Below, piece by piece: positions 5,813 to 62,552 of a DNA stretch of 64,000 nt. Each line of letters opens with the position of its first letter. Within the stretch, counting starts at the first letter, position 1. The notes beneath the pieces are model-generated. The model saw only the letters and a program-made list of their open reading frames with translations. It made no database searches and was not told where the DNA came from. The position numbers and the translations under genes are program-made. This DNA comes from Bdellovibrionota bacterium (GTDB lineage Bacteria; Bdellovibrionota; UBA2428), in contig CAXNGS010000005.1 in the NCBI GenBank assembly GCA_964202055.1, forward strand, positions 14,978-78,977, read 5' to 3'.

Positions 5813-7124
5813 TCGCAAAAGACTTTTTGCAATTGGGACCCCAGAGGAGTGCCGCGCACTCTCCTGGGGTTTTCGTCAATTAGGGACCCAGTCTTCGTCC
5901 CCCGAAATCACTGAAGCTTCGCTCTCCGACCTAAGAGCCGCCGCGAGCGAAGCTGATTTTTTAGTCTGCTTTGTCGATCTTGGGCAGCCGGTTCCAGTGA
6001 ACGCGCTGCTAGAAATTTCCAAGCAAATTCCCGGGGTGATCATTTTCACCCAACCCACTCCGACTCAACTCTTAAGTGTTTTTCAACTCTCACAATGGAC
6101 TGCTGTCACCTGGGATGGAAGCTCCCCGGATCATCTTTGCTTACAAGTCACAAAAGTTTTGTCGGACGCTGGCTCCTTGCTTCGTGAAAAAACCTTGATT
6201 CGCGAAGCGACTAAAATCGTCCGCGAAACCTCTCGAACTCCGTCCTTTGTCGAATGGATCAATGCTCCCATTTCAAGAAAAGCTTCGACTGAATTTTCAC
6301 TCAATCCTCACCAAATTTCGATCACCATTGGGGCTGATAACTCGAAATCTCATTTTGAAATTCCGTCAGCCACCAGCGGGCCGCTCTTGGAATTAAAATT
6401 CGTTAATGATCGCTGGATTCCTCGTGCGATCGACCCCGGGGTTGTTTTGCCGCCCAATGCCCAGCAAGAAGGTTTGCGGGCCGGCGACATTATTAAAATT
6501 GGCGAAATCATTCTTGCGCTGCGACCCAATCATGAAATTCAACGGCTCTCGCAAGTGATTCATCAATCAACGCCAACTGAAGCCGCTGATTTAGAATCCC
6601 TTAAAGAAATCACTAATCTTGAGGATTACCTGCAAAATTTATTAACTCGTTCAGCAACCGGCGAATTACAAATCGGAAGTGGATTAAAGCGCGCCAGCAT
6701 TTTTCTCCACAACGGCAGCCTGGACCAAGTTTTTGCAGGACCGGTTTCTGGAGACAAAGCCCTCGAAAGAATTCTGACTTGGAGCAAACCTATCTGGAAA
6801 TTTAGATCCGGTGACTTTTCGTTGAGCGATCAACCCTCGCTTAAGATTCAATCGACTGACTTTTCCATTTTTTGCGTGCAAGTGCGCCGAAATTGGTCGC
6901 GAATTTCTGCGTTAGTTCCGCCGATGAACATCAATGTCGACGTGGATCCTTCGAAATTTTCGCGATTGTCGAGCGTGACTCCCACCCAAAGCCGGGTCTT
7001 AGCGGCAGTCAGCGAATTTCGATTGGTCCGTGATGTTTTAAATTATTGTCCGCTTAGAGATTTAGAGATCTACGACGAATTAATCAGCTTCCGAAAATCG
7101 GGGCTGATTAGAATTTCAAAATAA
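5787..7124 (+). CDS. Hypothetical cytoplasmic regulatory-like protein (degenerate receiver-like N-terminus, possible FHA-like middle region)
   Basis: It is a long ORF with a TTG start overlapping the protease 3' end. FLVCFVDLGQPVP resembles a receiver acidic pocket, and GDIIKIGEIILALRP together with ITIGADNSKSHFEIP is loosely FHA-like. I recognised no firm family. Confidence 0.45.
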   Translation: MDPLVSTFNRKRLFAIGTPEECRALSWGFRQLGTQSSSPEITEASLSDLRAAASEADFLVCFVDLGQPVPVNALLEISKQIPGVIIFTQPTPTQLLSVFQLSQWTAVTWDGSSPDHLCLQVTKVLSDAGSLLREKTLIREATKIVRETSRTPSFVEWINAPISRKASTEFSLNPHQISITIGADNSKSHFEIPSATSGPLLELKFVNDRWIPRAIDPGVVLPPNAQQEGLRAGDIIKIGEIILALRPNHEIQRLSQVIHQSTPTEAADLESLKEITNLEDYLQNLLTRSATGELQIGSGLKRASIFLHNGSLDQVFAGPVSGDKALERILTWSKPIWKFRSGDFSLSDQPSLKIQSTDFSIFCVQVRRNWSRISALVPPMNINVDVDPSKFSRLSSVTPTQSRVLAAVSEFRLVRDVLNYCPLRDLEIYDELISFRKSGLIRISK

Positions 7125-51091: not shown

Positions 51092-53017
51092 ATGTCCAAG
51101 GGGGAAAACACATCGCTTTCACAAGTTAAAGACCTTGTGAAAGATCGCGTCGATTTAGCCGACGTGGTTTCCAAGCACACCCGCTTGGTCAAAACCGGAA
51201 ACGGTTTCAAAGCTTGTTGTCCGCTTCCCGGTCATCGCGAAAAAACTCCGTCTTTCCACATCGATCGCCAAAAAAATCTTTATTATTGCTACGGCTGCCA
51301 ACGCGGCGGCGACGTTTTTAATTTTCTGCAACTTGTAGAAGGTTTGAACTTCATCGAAGCCCTTAAAGAATTAGCCGAGGGCCTTCAAATCGAAATGCCC
51401 AAGCTTTCCAAGGGCGAAATCAAGGGAATGCAAGAACAGAAATCTTTGATGGACGAGGGCTTCGACGTTTTGAAGCGCGCGACCCAATATTATCATCGGG
51501 TTTTAGTAGAGCGAAAAAGTCCCGAAGCCATTGCGTGCTGGGATTATCTTGTAAAAAAACGCGCGATGACTGAAGAAGAAATCATCGCGCTTGAATTAGG
51601 CTATGCGCCTTCGGGCGGCACCGCGCTTTCTTCCAAACTTAACGGAACGCCTTTAGCCCCGGTCGCCGAAAAGCTGGGCTTGATTCGTGACACCCGAGTG
51701 GGGACTCGCGACTTTTTCCAATCTAGGCTGGTGATTCCGATCACAGATTTTCGGGGCAAAGTGCGCGGATTTTCCGGCCGAGTTTTAGACCCCGCTCCCG
51801 AAGACCAGCCCAAATATAAAAACTCCCAAGAATCCGATTGGTTTAAGAAAAAAGAAATTCTTTACGGACTCGAGCGCGCTTCGAAATTCATTCGTGAAGC
51901 CGGATTTGTCTGCGTCGTCGAAGGCTACTTCGATCAATGGGCCTTTGATCGAAATCAAATTCCGTCTGTTGCCGCGATGGGAGTGGCCCTTACCGACGAA
52001 CATCTGCGCACCCTGCAACGTTTCACTAAAAAAATATTTCTAGTGATGGACGCCGATCGCGCGGGAGTGGAATCAACCAAAAAAGCACTACCAGTTTTAA
52101 TGCGAGACGGTTGGGACGCGCGAGTTTTTTCGGAGCTGTCCGGCAAAGATCCCGACGAATGGTTGCATGAATTTAAAGGCAACTCGGCCGATGTGCTCAA
52201 CGCCCTAAACCAATCGCTAGAAGCTTCCGAATGGTGGGTTCGCCAAATTTTAAAGGAAGCCCGCCAACAAAACGAAAATCGTTTGCAAACTTTGCGCCGC
52301 ATGAAGGAAATTTGGGCTTGCGCATCGGACTCCGCCGCCAAAAGCATTCTTTCGGATTTAATTTCGCGTGCGCTCGGCATTGGGCGTGAAGAAGTTCGTG
52401 AAGCCATGGAAGACAAGAGCGCTGGTTCGGGAGCCGTTCCTTCGCAACCGCACCAAAATTTAGAATACCGACCCAACACCCCCCGCAACGCAGCATCGGA
52501 AGTTCCCGAAGAAGTGTACCGACCCAAACAAGACAAAATTTTATCCAAAAATTCTTGGGACAAAGCAGCCGAAGAAACTCTCGTTTGGTGGATTCGGCAC
52601 TGGAGCCTGCTCAGCCCTACCGACGAAAGCACTTGGGCCCAACGAGTGGAGCTTTTCCAAGGATCGCTGGCCGAGAGCCTGATTCGCGAATTATCCGAAG
52701 TTTCTAGAGCCGGGGGAACCGTTGAGGTTTCTTATTTAGCCCGTAAGCTTGAGGATGAGAAAGTTGATCCCCTACTGAAGCATTGGATCTTCCGTGGGAT
52801 GGTGGCCCCCGATGAAGGCAGCATTGTGGGGGTTCAGGACTCAGACAAGTCTTTAAATTCATTCAAAGAATTGGCAAGCGGCCTTCGCCGTGAGCGAATC
52901 CGCTCGGAGATTTCCATGCTCGACTCGGAATTGCGAACCCTCCGGGAAAATGACCCCAAAATGATGACCCTTCTGACGGAGATACAAAATCTACGATTCC
53001 GTTTGGAAGAGCGCTGA
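51092..53017 (+). CDS. dnaG: DNA primase DnaG
   Basis: Zinc ribbon reads CCPLPGHREKTPSFHIDRQKNLYYCYGCQRGGD, and a TOPRIM domain is present (EGYFD...LVMDADRAG). Confidence 0.9.
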   Translation: MSKGENTSLSQVKDLVKDRVDLADVVSKHTRLVKTGNGFKACCPLPGHREKTPSFHIDRQKNLYYCYGCQRGGDVFNFLQLVEGLNFIEALKELAEGLQIEMPKLSKGEIKGMQEQKSLMDEGFDVLKRATQYYHRVLVERKSPEAIACWDYLVKKRAMTEEEIIALELGYAPSGGTALSSKLNGTPLAPVAEKLGLIRDTRVGTRDFFQSRLVIPITDFRGKVRGFSGRVLDPAPEDQPKYKNSQESDWFKKKEILYGLERASKFIREAGFVCVVEGYFDQWAFDRNQIPSVAAMGVALTDEHLRTLQRFTKKIFLVMDADRAGVESTKKALPVLMRDGWDARVFSELSGKDPDEWLHEFKGNSADVLNALNQSLEASEWWVRQILKEARQQNENRLQTLRRMKEIWACASDSAAKSILSDLISRALGIGREEVREAMEDKSAGSGAVPSQPHQNLEYRPNTPRNAASEVPEEVYRPKQDKILSKNSWDKAAEETLVWWIRHWSLLSPTDESTWAQRVELFQGSLAESLIRELSEVSRAGGTVEVSYLARKLEDEKVDPLLKHWIFRGMVAPDEGSIVGVQDSDKSLNSFKELASGLRRERIRSEISMLDSELRTLRENDPKMMTLLTEIQNLRFRLEER

Positions 53018-53070: not shown

Positions 53071-55185
53071 ATGCCGCAAAAGAAAAAAACAGAAGCAAAA
53101 AGTACAAAAAAAACAGCTGCTAAGGTCGATGCTAAGTCGTCCGCAAAAGAAGTCGTGAAGACGACTAAAAAAGTTGCTGAAAAGCAAGCAGCACCGGCCG
53201 CCAAAACGACCGCAAAAATTGCGGCACCTACCAGCACTAAAAAAATTGCTGCTGCTCCTGCTGAAAAAGCTGTGGTGACTCCCGACAAAAAATTAAAGCC
53301 GGGCACCGCAAAAGCTGCACCCTTTGAAAATCAAAAATCAGCCTTTGGTGGAAATGCTAACGGTAAAAAAGGCGCTCCGCCGGCTCCGACTGGAAAGCCG
53401 GGACGCCGTCCCAAAGAAGAAGTTTCCGCAGAAGTTGCGATCGAGCGCTTAGCAGAGATGGGAAAGAAAAAAGGATTTCTGACCTTCGAAGAAATCAACA
53501 ACGCCCTTCCGAAAAACGTGACAACATCCGAGCAGCTTGAAGAAGTTGTTCGTTTCCTTACTGAACAAGAAATTGAATTGGTTGATGGCGACGAAGCCGA
53601 AGCGGTAGAAAAGGGTGGCGGAAAAAAAGACGCCGCCTCTGAAGCTGATGCCGCCGCCTCCGCCAGCGAAGACGAAGCCGAAGAAGAGCCCGCAGAAGTT
53701 GAAGCTGCCGCTGAAACTCCGGACTTCGACGGAATGTCCAAAGCCAATGATCCGGTTCGACTTTACCTGCGCAAAATGGGATCGATTCCTCTTTTGACCA
53801 AAGACGGCGAAGTGGAAATCGCCAAGAAAATTGAAGAAGGCGAGTCCGAAGTTATGGACGTCGTATTGAATTCCCAAATCGGGATTCAAGAAGTTTTGTC
53901 GGTTGGCGAGCGTATTCGCGCTGGCAAAATTCGAGTTCGCGACGTGGTTCGTGGTCTTGACGAAGACGATCCCGAAATCAACGAAGATGAATTCAAAGAT
54001 AAGATTTTGACCGCGATTGATCGCGTTCGAGATTTCGAAGCGGTTTTGACCTCGGGCAAAGCTTCACAAAAAGATTTGCTCGGTGCCCGTGATGCGATGT
54101 TTGCGGCCTTCGGTGAAATTTCTTTCAACCGAAAAACCATCAACCGCATTGTCGGCCGAATGAAGAGCTACGTTCAAACGATCGAAGACTCTGAACAAAC
54201 CTTGATTCGCGAACTTGGAAAAGTTCGCTGCAAAACCGTTGAAGATTATCAAAAGCTGAAAGCTAAATTTGGCGACAGCTCCAAAAAACTTGAAGCCTTC
54301 CGCCAAGCGGGCAACCGCACGCTGGAAGAAATCAGCGTGCTCGACCAAATTGTTACAGAACAAGCCAATCGACTTGAAGAAGTGGAAAACCTCTCGGGTC
54401 TTCCGATCGACAAGCTCAAGAAAATGTACGCGCAAATCGTCGACGGCGAACGCAAAGCTGAGTTTTCCAAAGCCAAGCTTGTTGAAGCCAACCTTCGATT
54501 GGTCGTGTCCATTGCTAAAAAATACACCAACCGTGGCTTGCAGTTCTTGGACTTGATCCAAGAAGGCAACATCGGCTTGATGAAGGCGGTCGACAAATTC
54601 GAATACCGTCGTGGTTATAAGTTCTCGACCTACGCTACCTGGTGGATTCGCCAAGCGATCACTCGCGCGATTGCCGACCAAGCCCGCACCATTCGTATTC
54701 CGGTTCACATGATTGAAACCATCAACAAGCTGGTTCGTACCAGCCGTTATTTGATGCAAGAAATCGGCCGCGAACCGACTCCTGAAGAAATTGCCGCCAA
54801 GATGGAATTGCCAGTCGAAAAAGTTCGCAAAGTTTTGAAGATCGCTAAAGAGCCGATCTCTTTGGAAACTCCGATCGGCGAAGAAGAGGATTCCCACTTG
54901 GGAGATTTCATCGAAGACAAAACTGCGATCAATCCCTCTGAAGCGGTCATCAACCTGAACCTTTCTGAGCAAACTCGTAAGGTTTTGGCAACGCTGACTC
55001 CTCGTGAAGAAAAAGTTCTGCGTATGCGTTTTGGCATTGGCGAAAAAGCCGATCACACTTTGGAAGAAGTGGGACAAGATTTCTCGGTCACTCGAGAACG
55101 GATTCGTCAAATCGAAGCCAAAGCCCTTCGCAAGCTTCGACACCCGAGCCGCGCGAAGCACTTGAAGAGTTTCGTAGAAAACTAA
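53071..55185 (+). CDS. rpoD: RNA polymerase primary sigma factor RpoD with about 115-aa Lys/Ala/Pro-rich histone-H1-like N-terminal tail
   Basis: Region 2 reads [53 protein letters not shown], and region 4.2 reads [28 protein letters not shown]. The tail [24 protein letters not shown]... is N-terminal. Confidence 0.95.
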
Positions 55186-55188
55186 GCC

Positions 55189-55860
55189 GTGGCGCTTAAC
55201 CGTCGCGCCCAGTTTTTGATCTTCTTTTTTTCTGCACTTTTGCTTTTCGTGTTTTCGCCCGCCCTTTCACAGAAAATGATTTCCCCAACCCAAGAAATGC
55301 TTTCCGAAGAGGCTTGTTCGACACTCCAAAAAACTCTGGGCAACAAAATCCGCGAGGCCAATAGCTGCACCCAAGACAGCGAATGCACATTGCGGTCTTT
55401 TGGCTGTCCCTTTGGCTGCGAGTCCGTGGTGAGGGCCGACCAGCAGGTCGAGCTTACTCGCCTCACGCAAGAGTACGGGGCCGGTTGCAATCGCTGTTAC
55501 TATGATTGTGACGTTCGTCCTGGACCCGCAAAATGCTTGAACAATAAATGTGTAAAAATCACAGGCCAAATGATCGAGCAAGAGATGCCGAGACTAAATC
55601 CATCTGAGTGTAAAACTGAGCAGCAAAGAATCCGAAAAGAAAATCACAAAGCACGGGCTTGTCTCGAAACTTCAGACTGCGTGGCTTCGCCACTCAGATG
55701 TCCCTTTGGATGCCACGAACTCGTGAACAAAAACGAGTACACCCGAATAGAGGCGCTTTATTCGCGATTTTCAAAGACGTGCAAGGCCTGCGAGTATAAA
55801 TGCGCCGCTCCGTCTGGCGAGCCTTATTGCTTAAACAAGCGCTGTGTTTGGAAAGAATAA
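55189..55860 (+). CDS. Secreted tandem-duplicated 10-cysteine domain protein (2 x about 85 aa)
   Basis: It has a GTG start 3 nt after the rpoD stop and a signal peptide (MALNRRAQFLIFFFSALLLFVFSPALSQ). Two repeats share the Cys spacing C-x5-C-x6-CPFGC-x23/24-C-x2-C-x3-C-x7/8-C-x4-C. Confidence 0.55.
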   Translation: MALNRRAQFLIFFFSALLLFVFSPALSQKMISPTQEMLSEEACSTLQKTLGNKIREANSCTQDSECTLRSFGCPFGCESVVRADQQVELTRLTQEYGAGCNRCYYDCDVRPGPAKCLNNKCVKITGQMIEQEMPRLNPSECKTEQQRIRKENHKARACLETSDCVASPLRCPFGCHELVNKNEYTRIEALYSRFSKTCKACEYKCAAPSGEPYCLNKRCVWKE

Positions 55861-55919
55861 GCCCAGCGGTTGATTCTTCTTCTCTTAAATTCTATCGTCA
55901 GATTTTTCGTCACGAAAAA

Positions 55920-58830: not shown

Positions 58831-59688
58831 ATGAATCGAATCCTAAAAGCGATTAGCTTTTCAGCCCTCCTCGTTCTTAATTCTTGCGCCTATCAATATC
58901 GAATTAAAGACGTAGATAAAGCCCTTGATCGAAACGAAAAGCAGCTCGGAAAAATGCAAAAGCAAATCGGAGCTGATTTGAAGAACAAATCTAAAATCTT
59001 GGACTGCTTTAGTGAAGCAGATGGTGCCAGCAATTCTTCACAAGAAATCACGGATAAAATTAATGACCTGCAAGCCAAGCAACAAGAAGTTAGCAAAGCC
59101 ACCGCCCAACTAGAGGGCGGCATGAAATTAGTTCGCGCCAAAATGAAGGGCAAAAAGACCATCAACAGCCAAGAGTCAGACTACCCGGAATTCAAAAAAT
59201 CACTCGACGACTTAGAAGGCCTCAGTAAAAACCTGCAGAAAGCGCTAGATGGCTACAGCAAAAGCTCATCGTCTTTTCAAGCGGAAGCCAAACGCCGCAA
59301 AATTCTCATATTAGACTTTAACACTTTGGCGGCTGACTTAGCCAAAGCCACCTCAAGCACCGAAGCCTCGATAGTTGCCGCAAAAAAAGAGATCGCCTCT
59401 GCTAAAAAAATCATCGGAAAATCAGAAATCAAAGACAAAGAAAAAAGAATGGTCGCTCTCGAGAAAATGAACGGACTTCTTGGGGAAGCTACGGTTGAAG
59501 CCACCGCGGCGAAATCTGCTGCCACAAATTTAAACAAAGAGTTTCCGCAAAAAGGCTTGGTTTGTCTGGCGCCTCACCACTCGGCATATTCCTATATCAA
59601 TGACCTTAATGGACATAGCCAGCGGATTTCAAAAATTGGCCAGGCGCTCAATAAATTATCCAAGGAAGTTTCCGCCAAAGGAAAATGA
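58831..59688 (+). CDS. Coiled-coil lipoprotein, hypothetical
   Basis: The lipobox reads LVLNSCAY, and the protein is Lys/Glu/Ala-rich with heptad character throughout. Confidence 0.65.
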   Translation: MNRILKAISFSALLVLNSCAYQYRIKDVDKALDRNEKQLGKMQKQIGADLKNKSKILDCFSEADGASNSSQEITDKINDLQAKQQEVSKATAQLEGGMKLVRAKMKGKKTINSQESDYPEFKKSLDDLEGLSKNLQKALDGYSKSSSSFQAEAKRRKILILDFNTLAADLAKATSSTEASIVAAKKEIASAKKIIGKSEIKDKEKRMVALEKMNGLLGEATVEATAAKSAATNLNKEFPQKGLVCLAPHHSAYSYINDLNGHSQRISKIGQALNKLSKEVSAKGK

Positions 59689-59699
59689 AGTAGAAAAAA

Positions 59700-61268
59700 A
59701 TGAAGCTAGACGAATATTTTTTGCTGGCGGCCTTTTCTTATCTTCGTGCGGATTCCGCACTCTCTAAAAATTTACAATCCACCCTTTCGTCGTCGCCCTA
59801 TGAATTTATAAAGCCAAGGCTGCCTGGAGAGTTTTCCGTAGGGTCAACCGAGCCTTCGGGCCGCGCCATTGGCTTCTTTGAGTGGGCCGACAGCCTGCGC
59901 CGCGAAGGAATTTTATCGATGAGGGTCTCGCGCATCGGCACCACTCTTCCGGAAAATCTTGAGTTTACGGCGGCTACCCTTTTTGGATCATCGCAAGAAA
60001 TTTTACGAGTGAGCACAAAAATTACCAATCATGATTATTTATTATCACCCTCGGCAAGTCCCCGATTTAAAGCCACTGCTGAAAACTTCGTCTCAATTGT
60101 GGACCAACAAGCAGATCCCGCAGAACTGTGGGCTTATATCAGCGCTCGAATCAAAGAGTTTTTAACTTTGAACGGAGATCTCTTCAATCCAAGCAAAACC
60201 GGCAAGCAACTGATGCTCGAGCTACCCAACAATTCGCTATGGGATCCGCTTGGAGACTCCTTATTTCGAGAGCTACAAGTTTTTGCATTATGTGAAAACT
60301 TTGAAATAGTGATTCCTAAAAACTTATCATCCCTGGTGAGTGCCTTTACTTTTGACGATGAATTCGATGATCCACAGCTCAAAGATTACGTTTACTTTTA
60401 CAAAGAGAAAGACGTGACGATCGAAATGTTCATTGAAATGATCGAGGCCCAAACAGAGAGCCCAGAAGTCCGACGTCGCCTGTCCCAACTATTAATCGAA
60501 AATGAAAAATCAATTTCCTTCGATTTAAATTCGCCGGAATGGAAAATTTTTCTCAAGAAAGCCAGCCCCGAACAATTTGAAACTTTGGTGGGGTGGGCAT
60601 GCCGGGCCGTTTCAAACGTTTGTTCGGAGTTTAAAAGCATGCCGATCATTCCCATCGGTCAGGAATCCTTTTGGGGACCTAGCCCCCTAGACCTTAAACG
60701 AATTAGGGCTCGAGAATCCCTTCAAAAAAAGGGCCTGCAACTGACTCCCTTTGAAGAGCCCTGGCAGTTTTACGAATTTCATCCGATGGATCAGCCCGCA
60801 AAATTTAGCGAGGCTCATGGCTTTCAAGACGATGGAGAGGGCGTAATCGAAGACTACCGCCATTCGCTCGGCCAAATCATTCCCTTTTCGAAGGAAATTA
60901 ATTCACCCTTTACCGAAGCCTTTCGATTGGCAGATTTTATTTTGCAACATCCGAAAACCATCCTTTCCGGCGGGAATTCCGCCACTCTTTTTTTAAATAG
61001 AAATGGTTTTAGCGACCTGGCTGTAGAAATATTTTTGGAAAAAACCGAATTGATTCAAAACCTAAGCTCTATGCGTTTTGAGGAAACCGAAATTATTCAA
61101 TTTCTTTCGCTAGAAGTTTCTGATGTTTTTGGGGGAATGGGTTCGTGGAATGATCAATATTTCCAGGATATTTCCCTACAAGAAAAATTCAACTCGATTT
61201 CTTCTGCTTTAATTTCAAGTCGCAACCTAGTTTTCCAATCACTACTTAATTACAACAGTGGATCCTGA
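59700..61268 (+). CDS. Hypothetical 522-aa cytoplasmic protein, no recognisable domain
   Basis: The long ORF starts 12 nt after the lipoprotein gene. Confidence 0.55.
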   Translation: MKLDEYFLLAAFSYLRADSALSKNLQSTLSSSPYEFIKPRLPGEFSVGSTEPSGRAIGFFEWADSLRREGILSMRVSRIGTTLPENLEFTAATLFGSSQEILRVSTKITNHDYLLSPSASPRFKATAENFVSIVDQQADPAELWAYISARIKEFLTLNGDLFNPSKTGKQLMLELPNNSLWDPLGDSLFRELQVFALCENFEIVIPKNLSSLVSAFTFDDEFDDPQLKDYVYFYKEKDVTIEMFIEMIEAQTESPEVRRRLSQLLIENEKSISFDLNSPEWKIFLKKASPEQFETLVGWACRAVSNVCSEFKSMPIIPIGQESFWGPSPLDLKRIRARESLQKKGLQLTPFEEPWQFYEFHPMDQPAKFSEAHGFQDDGEGVIEDYRHSLGQIIPFSKEINSPFTEAFRLADFILQHPKTILSGGNSATLFLNRNGFSDLAVEIFLEKTELIQNLSSMRFEETEIIQFLSLEVSDVFGGMGSWNDQYFQDISLQEKFNSISSALISSRNLVFQSLLNYNSGS

Positions 61269-61382
61269 GCTCTAACGCAGCACGCCGCCCGTGCTAGGTT
61301 TTCTACAGTCACCATTTTGCCATCGATGGCGCGTTCGCCCATGTGCCGCTAACATACTTAAAGGAAACTAAATTATTTTTAT

Positions 61383-62552
61383 ATGAGATTAAACAAACGC
61401 GGAATTGGATTAGCCGAAATCTTGGTGGCGGTGGCCCTTCTCGGGATGGCCAGCGTGCTGCTCATGAATATGCTCAATGGTTACTTAGACTCAAAAACCA
61501 AAGCCGAGTTCAATCACATTACTAAAAATTTCGGGCTGAATTTGTCCCGGGCCCTGGGGAATCCGGCCACTTGCGGAGCGACCTTAACCGCCGCCAACAT
61601 GTCTTCACTGGACTTAAGAACCTTCCCCAGCATCAATAAAATTATCGACGTTACCGGAGCCACTATTTATCAAGTCGGAAATACTTATTCCGAAGGAACC
61701 CTTAAACTTTTGGGGATTCGAATTCAAAAATTCACACCCGGCGCTGGGCCTGATCGAATAGCCGAAGCCACCGTTTACTTCGATATCGAGTATTTAAAAG
61801 ACACTCCGGTCAGCCCCGTGATGACTTGGGCCTATCATGCAAACGTGCGAACTCCTGACCCTCTGGTCGTAACTCCTGATGCGGAATTTTTCATTGAACA
61901 AGTTGGGGCGGTTGGTAGCGAAAAGGCCATTTGTTCTTCGGGCGTGACCGATCGCGGATACACTCAAACCAATGGCGACACCATGATCGGCCCACTGGCC
62001 ATCGATTTACCGGCAAGCTATGGCCCAATCGTTGCAGGCGACCCTTGCTTTATTTTTCCCATCCCTCCCACAGGCTGCATCGGAACCAACCCATGGTTTG
62101 GCGCGGTTGTCGCTCCGCTACTTCCCGATGAAAGCGATCAAACAGTCCCGCCAACTATTCCTTGGAAGAAAAGGTGGGGGCTTTTGGTAAACTTTGGTTA
62201 CGTAGAAACCAACAAACTTTATCTAGATTCTGATGAGCGACTGAAACAAAATATTCAGAAAATTAAAGCCCCCCTTGAGCTACTGAATCATTTAGAAGGC
62301 AGATCATTTTCATGGAAGGATTCCAATCTTTCCGACTGGGGCTTCATTGCTCAAGATGTCAAAAAATTTGCGCCCGAGCTTGTCCACGCCGGAGAAAAAA
62401 CTGGCTATTTATCAGTGCAATATTTGAGTTTATTGGCCCACCAAGTAGAAGCTCTTAAACTTTTAAAGGGCGAACAAGATGATCGAGCCCTCGAACTTAG
62501 CCAATTGAAAGAGCGGATGTCGAAGCTTCGGGCACAAATGCTCCTAAATTGA
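61383..62552 (+). CDS. Type IV pilin-like N-terminus fused to a tail-fibre-like domain with a C-terminal peptidase S74 intramolecular-chaperone domain
   Basis: The prepilin motif reads MRLNKRG|IGLAEILVAVALLGMASVLL (Gly -1, Glu +5). The tail-fibre motif reads NGDTMIGPL. The C-terminal domain (62211-62552) reads LYLDS|DERLKQNIQKI...WGFIAQDV...LSVQYLSLLAHQV with the S-D-x-R-x-K-x-N-I autocleavage signature. Confidence 0.7.
   Translation: MRLNKRGIGLAEILVAVALLGMASVLLMNMLNGYLDSKTKAEFNHITKNFGLNLSRALGNPATCGATLTAANMSSLDLRTFPSINKIIDVTGATIYQVGNTYSEGTLKLLGIRIQKFTPGAGPDRIAEATVYFDIEYLKDTPVSPVMTWAYHANVRTPDPLVVTPDAEFFIEQVGAVGSEKAICSSGVTDRGYTQTNGDTMIGPLAIDLPASYGPIVAGDPCFIFPIPPTGCIGTNPWFGAVVAPLLPDESDQTVPPTIPWKKRWGLLVNFGYVETNKLYLDSDERLKQNIQKIKAPLELLNHLEGRSFSWKDSNLSDWGFIAQDVKKFAPELVHAGEKTGYLSVQYLSLLAHQVEALKLLKGEQDDRALELSQLKERMSKLRAQMLLN

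Follow-up and report, generated by a model that had tools for sequence, protein, structure and literature searches.

A predicted exported protein with two cysteine-rich CPFGC domains, encoded directly behind rpoD in a Bdellovibrionota bacterium

The closest described counterparts of the protein analyzed here come from several groups. WAP domains (elafin, SLPI) are small, secreted and non-catalytic and contain four disulfides; tandem WAP copies, e.g., in SLPI, work as two-headed protease inhibitors. Kazal and pacifastin domains are also disulfide-rich extracellular modules, often occurring in tandem. In twin-CX3C/CHCH proteins and cysteine-stabilized alpha/beta (CS-alpha/beta) defensins, CX3C motifs are stapled by disulfides, and Ivy, a small periplasmic alpha/beta inhibitor of vertebrate lysozyme and lytic transglycosylases, carries a CKPHDC loop. 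Here, we report a protein that resembles each of these in some respect and is built from a domain of a different, new family within the class of small disulfide-rich extracytoplasmic domains. It is encoded by the last cistron of the rpsU-yqeY-dnaG-rpoD cluster in a Bdellovibrionota bacterium (GCA_964202055.1, contig CAXNGS010000005.1, positions 14,978 to 78,977 of the forward strand). This whole stretch of 64,000 nucleotides (nt) is called the window below, and its own positions are used throughout (Table 1). The protein consists of a predicted signal peptide followed by two copies of a cysteine (Cys)-rich domain with a CPFGC core motif; the CPFGC family was defined in this analysis.

The window protein contains exactly 20 Cys residues: C43, 60, 66, 73, 77, 100, 103, 107, 116 and 121 in domain 1, and C141, 158, 164, 171, 175, 198, 201, 205, 214 and 219 in domain 2. 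Gaps between successive Cys are the same in both repeats (16, 5, 6, 3, 22, 2, 3, 8 and 4 residues). When the repeats were aligned with each other, the local BLOSUM62 score was 148, compared to 30.0 +/- 5.6 for 500 shuffles, the maximum of which was 51. The two halves are a true internal duplication, far beyond chance. A preliminary description of this DNA had already recognized the duplicated repeats, their boundaries and the 20 Cys, all of which are borne out. Its spacing formula was right in pattern and needs correction in two places, as the long gap is 22 residues and not 23 or 24, and the penultimate gap is 8 residues and not 7 or 8.

An exhaustive profile search over 1.84 billion cluster representatives identified 1,727 that matched the CPFGC family at E ≤ 1e-3, of which 625 matched at E ≤ 1e-10. 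Word-indexed protein searches gave few relatives (two proteins with an 87-sequence profile). The domain is unannotated yet common in metagenomes. Comparison of the window protein with Pfam (E ≤ 10), NCBIfam and PADLOC detected no family, the single match (IraM, E = 0.17) being noise. None of 87 domain sequences reached the cut-off of any Pfam-A family, searches of PDB sequences with the single protein and with the 87-sequence profile gave 0 matches, and we found no description of the domain in the literature. The earlier proposal of a novel domain whose pattern is not that of EGF, Kazal or TNFR modules agrees with these results, and the profile search it had suggested for the C-P-F-G-C domain uncovered a large family; what does not hold is any notion that the domain is rare. 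With ∼1,700 sequence clusters in environmental bacteria and apparently archaea, and no Pfam or NCBIfam model or PDB relative found, the CPFGC domain is a good subject for defining a new family and for solving a structure.

Most relatives contain a single copy: among 166 proteins, one domain was present in 149, two in 16 and four in one. The CPFGC motif, which forms the turn between the strands beta1 and beta2, was found in almost all of 165 retrieved members. A domain copy is usually placed directly after an export signal (signal peptide, lipobox or membrane anchor); the N-terminus is hydrophobic in 145 of the 165 members, and a lipobox-like pattern occurs in 54. All identifiable fusion partners are extracellular, including Big_14 Ig-like, DUF6438, Kazal, pacifastin, leucine-rich repeat (LRR), S-layer and M10/M12 peptidase domains, and some of the surface-protein members look, by eye, as if they come from candidate phyla or archaea. 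Many other relatives, 100–140 residues long, consist of the domain alone. In one such single-domain subfamily (P0004, P0008 and P0010), the gene is linked to ruvCAB, and its first base is also the last of ruvB. These ruvB-linked loci have, ∼23 nt further on, a second gene that encodes this Cys domain (6444..7163 in L002 and 5404..6096 in L007, and also in L003, L004 and L008). Its product has an extra C-terminal region of ∼120 residues (RVRFESLPDGK...PRHHGKHYHV...GAGTGF), for which no match was found in Pfam, PADLOC or PDB sequences. Neighborhoods of six single-domain relatives had no partner gene in common.

Multiple alignments of 18 and 87 sequences showed that C2–C5 and C7–C10, together with the Pro-Phe of CPFGC, vary little or not at all. 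Both window repeats match the core spacing C-x5-C-x6-C-x3-C ... C-x3-C-x8-C-x4-C. Judged from these alignments, the conserved core is 8 Cys, and C1/C6 is a facultative fifth pair; the domain described initially as a 10-Cys module thus has ten Cys in both window repeats and eight in the conserved core of the family. Natural losses of Cys occur in pairs. In >96 domain copies C1 and C6 occur together, in 48 neither is found, and a single copy lacks C1 alone. C5 and C8 are lost together in P0103 (CPFGS ... CEYEL) and in the degenerate first domain of P0129, and C4 and C7 in the second domain of P0046. Because the losses come in these pairs, we infer disulfides C1-C6, C4-C7 and C5-C8, corresponding to C43-C100, C73-C103 and C77-C107 in domain 1 and C141-C198, C171-C201 and C175-C205 in domain 2 of the window protein. 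C2, C3, C9 and C10 would make the other two bonds of each domain. Each domain would then fold oxidatively, with four invariant disulfides and one optional disulfide. The paired losses are in accord with the disulfide-bonded fold suggested earlier, and the C1-C6 link agrees with the antiparallel helix packing in the predicted structure.

AlphaFold2 modeling of repeat 1 with the 87-sequence alignment gave a predicted local distance difference test (pLDDT) score of 93.3 and a predicted template modeling (pTM) score of 0.81. The predicted elements are a helix (residues 2–18 of the repeat), strands 28–31 and 41–44, a second helix (45–61) and a hairpin (76–79/82–85), i.e., an alpha-beta-beta-alpha-beta-beta fold predicted with high confidence. 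The model of the mature two-domain protein was of similar quality (pLDDT 92.6, pTM 0.80) and contained a linker helix at mature residues 99–104; the two domains are predicted to pack in one rigid unit with a defined arrangement. As proposed in the preliminary description, the single-repeat model was compared by Foldseek with PDB and BFVD; neither this search nor one of PDB with the full model returned anything below E = 0.19. The best matches were ACT/PII/CutA-like sandwiches with TM ≤ 0.33, which we took as noise, and no structure reached the level set for a match (E ≤ 0.001 or TM > 0.5). The CPFGC domain is possibly a new fold.

Nearly all residues conserved across the family look structural, namely Cys, the Pro-Phe-Gly turn, an Asn helix cap and core hydrophobic residues, and neither alignment (18 or 87 sequences) shows a catalytic-looking motif among them. 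These two features point to a rigid, protease-resistant binding scaffold and not an enzyme. The two domains of the window protein differ in charge. Domain 1 is roughly neutral in the window (isoelectric point (pI) 6.4) and acidic to neutral across the rpoD-linked orthologues (pI 5.8–7.6), whereas domain 2 is basic in both (8.7 and 8.7–9.0, respectively); this asymmetry is kept in all four orthologues. In domain 2 of the orthologues, moreover, the first helix is charged and conserved and the C-terminal ...CVWKE does not vary, which makes this domain the likelier partner-binding site.

We compared the domain with the known modules mentioned above. Sub-threshold matches to WAP (PF00095) occurred in 22 of the 87 domain sequences, with 13–18 bits compared to a cut-off of 20.8. 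These matches span model positions ∼13–36 of 41 and cover only the C2–C5 segment of the domain. The local motif C-x2-D-x-D-C-x4..C-x3-C of the CPFGC domain aligns with WAP C..D..CPG..KCC..GC, and the tandem layout of SLPI resembles that of the window protein. On the other hand, the window protein had no match to the WAP model even at E ≤ 10. Furthermore, the CPFGC domain (∼85 residues) is about twice as long as WAP (∼45 residues), has two 17-residue helices, whereas WAP is largely non-helical, lacks the central KCC doublet and would pair its Cys differently. Membership in WAP was rejected on the partial, sub-threshold matches, a weak profile-profile comparison, the length, the helices and the missing CC doublet. 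With the resemblance to WAP being sub-threshold and local, the repeats match no known Cys-rich family, a point on which the preliminary description had left itself open to correction.

Other likenesses are more distant. Kazal and pacifastin domains have no sequence match to the CPFGC domain, and Foldseek found no inhibitor structure. As in the stapled CX3C motifs of twin-CX3C proteins, CPFGC and C7-x3-C8 would be cross-linked, here by C4-C7 and C5-C8. In contrast to those proteins, the first CX3C is in a loop and not in a helix, the domain is larger and has another topology, and no structural match was detected. Ivy is a functional analogy only, an example of a self-protective inhibitor in the periplasm. 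It shares with the CPFGC domain a strictly conserved short loop between two Cys (CKPHDC in Ivy) and has no sequence or structural similarity to it; moreover, the two Cys of the Ivy loop bond each other, whereas those of CPFGC would be bonded to C7 and C8.

The N-terminus of the window protein reads MALNRRAQFLIFFFSALLLFVFSPALS, followed by QK. By inspection, it has a positively charged n-region (MALNRR), an h-region of ∼15 residues (AQFLIFFFSALLLFVF) and a c-region (SPALS) with an A-x-S site, and signal peptidase I is predicted to cut between S27 and Q28 (signal peptides were judged from hydropathy and by eye). This tripartite N-terminus, together with the hydrophobic N-termini of the orthologues described below, fits the secreted protein proposed at the outset. 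An RR pair in the n-region of the window protein (NRRAQFL) and of its orthologue P0003 (KRRGFLK) resembles the twin-arginine translocation (Tat) motif. The general secretory (Sec) pathway is favored over Tat, since the h-region is strongly hydrophobic and RR is missing in the orthologues P0002 and L006. The protein would go through Sec and be cleaved past Ser27, leaving a processed form of ∼22 kDa that is soluble in the periplasm or is possibly secreted further.

Two-domain orthologues of the window protein were detected in three other cases: P0002 (locus L001, 47% identical), P0003 (on two contigs, 47%) and the protein of locus L006 (40%). L006 is from an uncultured Bacteriovoracaceae metagenome-assembled genome (MAG) and was the sole relative that the patterns used detected in 185,579 species genomes; two scans of metagenome contigs gave no relatives. 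The order of rpoD followed by the Cys-rich gene is kept in all four cases (the window, L001, a P0003 contig and L006), and a downstream tRNA(CAT) was confirmed in all three loci with DNA (the window, L001 and L006). The Cys-rich ORF (open reading frame) starts 3 nt past the rpoD TAA in the window. The same 3-nt gap separates the rpoD stop from the start in L006 and the P0003 contig, and the gap is 13 nt in L001; a TAA/TGA-GCC-GTG junction is common to the window and L006. GC content (0.49) and GC content at third codon positions (GC3, 0.53) of the ORF both match those of neighboring genes. The Cys-rich ORF is a conserved, native gene.

The start codon deserves attention, as the preliminary description had allowed for a GTG that is not used. 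No ATG is present between the rpoD stop and domain 1 in any of the three other orthologues (P0002, P0003 and L006). All three retain an open hydrophobic N-terminal extension, with a GTG (L006) or near-cognate start, and the internal Met30 and Met37 of the window protein are not conserved among orthologues. Because these orthologues have no ATG ahead of domain 1, translation appears to begin from a non-ATG codon just past rpoD. By this comparison, the GTG is the only start consistent with the orthologues, and it supplies the predicted signal peptide. A public gene call of identical sequence (P0001, on a Logan contig of 1,387 bp) begins at Met37 (187 residues, window positions 55297..55860) and omits the signal peptide, and the full 223-residue product was absent from a 15-billion-protein collection. 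P0001 shows that automatic gene calling can lose a signal peptide.

Expression probably occurs from the rpoD operon by translational coupling, judging from the junction sequence. Translation would begin at the GTG through termination-reinitiation, and the Cys-rich protein would be made constitutively along with sigma-70. If so, the stop-GCC-GTG insertion between rpoD and the tRNA gene is a natural test case for coupling an exported protein to the sigma-70 cistron. There is no Shine-Dalgarno sequence upstream of the GTG. Two observations speak against such coupling. A weak terminator-like element, whose hairpin might reduce read-through or cover the start codon, lies over the start, so that expression could be attenuated instead of coupled. 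The start-codon hairpin folds are no stabler than shuffles (z = -1.25, -2.06 and -1.25). At each of the three junctions (the window, L001 and L006), minimum-energy folding leaves the start codon paired; the start-codon hairpin was considered as a regulatory element and dropped, its stability being within the shuffle range. The Cys-rich ORF and rpoD share a reading frame in the window and L006 and not in L001. Stop-codon readthrough yielding an RpoD fusion was rejected, as the L001 spacer is 13 nt long and out of frame. Given this L001 spacer, the shared frame seems to be a side effect of the 3-nt spacing rather than a design for readthrough.

With regard to function, these sequence features lead us to think, with moderate confidence, that the window protein is a rigid, non-catalytic, disulfide-stabilized periplasmic binding protein. 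The most likely specific role, proposed by analogy and tentatively, would be that of a tight-binding inhibitor, or a guard, of some hydrolase outside the cytoplasm, either a protease or an enzyme that cleaves the cell wall. Three weak leads point in this direction: one protein, P0160, in which the CPFGC domain is N-terminal to Kazal and pacifastin domains (the only such protein), the WAP-like motif C..D.DC....C...C, and the two-headed layout. More generally, a disulfide-locked compact frame and the N-terminal position in surface proteins suggest that the domain is likely a general extracytoplasmic binding or inhibitor scaffold. Counting against these proposals, no known homologue bears on function, the genomic context varies by subfamily (after rpoD, after ruvB or elsewhere) and implies no partner gene, and the inhibitor idea depends on a single fusion protein and a motif below threshold, for which hhalign of the family against a WAP profile (built from six bona fide WAP domains and checked against Pfam) gave 15.9% probability over 21 columns. 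In addition, reactive loops of canonical inhibitors are hypervariable, whereas CPFGC, the most conserved loop of the domain, is invariant.

An alternative that accounts for part of the same evidence is that the domain is an inert structural or spacer module, a hyper-stable "foot" by the membrane anchor, and that the window protein is a ligand-free envelope component. The mostly structural nature of the conserved residues would suit such a module, as would the multi-domain relatives, in which the domain almost always follows the export signal and precedes Ig-like, LRR, Kazal or protease modules. We think it unlikely for the window protein, which, like many of the 100–140-residue relatives, is made of this domain alone behind a cleavable signal peptide and has nothing to space. 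Conservation of charged surface residues and of the C-terminus in domain 2 among orthologues also suggests a specific interaction, in line with a binding protein.

Another reading is that of an effector or toxin used in predation, secreted and delivered into the prey periplasm. The orthologue group has so far been seen only in Bdellovibrionota-like contexts, with one named relative, the Bacteriovoracaceae MAG, and the extra C-terminal region of the ruvB-linked paralogue has an HH..H.H motif. Set against this, the gene belongs with the housekeeping rpsU-dnaG-rpoD cluster instead of a locus regulated in predation, the family of the domain extends far beyond predators, a Sec signal is present with no dedicated secretion or targeting feature, and no similarity to toxin families was detected in Pfam or PADLOC. 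Delivery to the prey periplasm, which had been raised in the preliminary description, found nothing in its support, and we regard an effector as a quite improbable reading. The binding-protein reading may also be extended to the predator itself. In this scheme, the CPFGC domain would be an undescribed fold used widely by bacteria and archaea as a disulfide-locked inhibitor or guard, and its two-headed version would have been coupled to the sigma-70 operon in a Bdellovibrionota lineage, shielding the predator envelope from hydrolases deployed on prey. This is a long shot; if true, the predator constitutively protects its own envelope against its prey-directed hydrolases.

Metal or cluster binding, in which CxxxC, CxxC and CxxxC would ligate Zn, Cu or Fe-S and form no disulfides, is very unlikely. 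The 8–10 invariant Cys per domain, arranged in short motifs, and the Tat-like RR of the window protein and P0003 could be read in this way. However, the loss of Cys in the pairs C1/C6, C4/C7 and C5/C8, and not in fours, is what disulfides would lead one to expect, unlike the four-ligand sites of zinc-ribbon or ferredoxin-type clusters. No ferredoxin or zinc-finger model matched the domain. The very hydrophobic, Sec-like h-region, the absence of RR from P0002 and L006, and the Lys-rich Sec signals or lipoboxes of most relatives also disfavor the metal-binding module that had initially been listed as an option.

A role as an RpoD-linked, anti-sigma-like regulator, suggested by the strictly conserved rpoD adjacency and the 3-nt spacer, is highly improbable, as the ∼6 residues ahead of the hydrophobic segment leave no cytoplasmic sigma-binding domain, neither the N-terminal H-x3-C-x2-C of ZAS anti-sigma proteins nor any ZAS or anti-sigma Pfam match was detected, and single-domain relatives occur after ruvB or in unrelated contexts. 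Finally, a spurious ORF, or a start at M30 or M37 giving a cytoplasmic protein, could appeal to the M37 gene call on the 1.4-kb P0001 contig and to the lack of a Shine-Dalgarno sequence, and is close to refuted by the four syntenic orthologues, the family of 1,727 clusters, the non-conserved M30 and M37, and the hydrophobic extension that orthologues keep from a non-ATG start.

Table 1. Positions of the features discussed, in window coordinates.
Feature	Position	Strand	Basis or remark
Exported two-domain Cys-rich protein ORF	55189..55860	+	GTG start, 223 codons + TAA; complete
TAA-GCC-GTG junction (rpoD stop, one codon, start codon)	55183..55191	+	Putative translational-coupling site
Signal peptide, residues 1-27	55189..55269	+	Hydropathy profile and inspection
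Domain 1, residues ~38-125	55300..55563	+	Hidden Markov model (HMM) domain E = 7e-25
CPFGC motif, domain 1 (C4-x3-C5; residues 73-77)	55405..55419	+	Sequence
Inter-domain linker, residues 126-137	55564..55599	+	Short predicted helix in full-length model
Domain 2, residues ~138-223	55600..55857	+	HMM domain E = 1.4e-25
CPFGC motif, domain 2 (residues 171-175)	55699..55713	+	Sequence
rpoD (sigma-70), upstream cistron	53071..55185	+	Preceded by rpsU, yqeY, dnaG
dnaG	51092..53017	+	Precedes rpoD, after rpsU and yqeY
tRNA, CAT anticodon	55920..55996	+	Downstream boundary; 59 nt past Cys-rich ORF end
Promoter-like TTGATT-N17-TATCGT	55870..55898	+	Upstream of tRNA(CAT); conserved in window, L001 and L006
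Terminator-like hairpin CGTGGCG-CTTAAC-CGTCGCG, then CCCAGTTTTT	55188..55207	+	Weak; overlaps GTG start

The tRNA(CAT) gene that bounds the locus downstream was found at 6668..6744 in L001 and at 6695..6771 in L006. Called as tRNA-Met, it occupies, just downstream of the rpoD cluster, the place of ileX (tRNA-Ile2, with a lysidine-modified CAU anticodon) in E. coli. Its anticodon stem is presumably closer to that of ileX than to that of elongator tRNA-Met, and it may be a tRNA-Ile2.

Further downstream in the window, an ORF of 389 residues (61383..62552, + strand) has a C-terminal Peptidase_S74 domain (E = 1.4e-13), the intramolecular chaperone of endosialidases or tail fibers. The two ORFs ahead of it (58831..59688 and 59700..61268) had no match in Pfam. 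The region 58831..62552 may be a phage-tail-fiber-like or adhesin locus.

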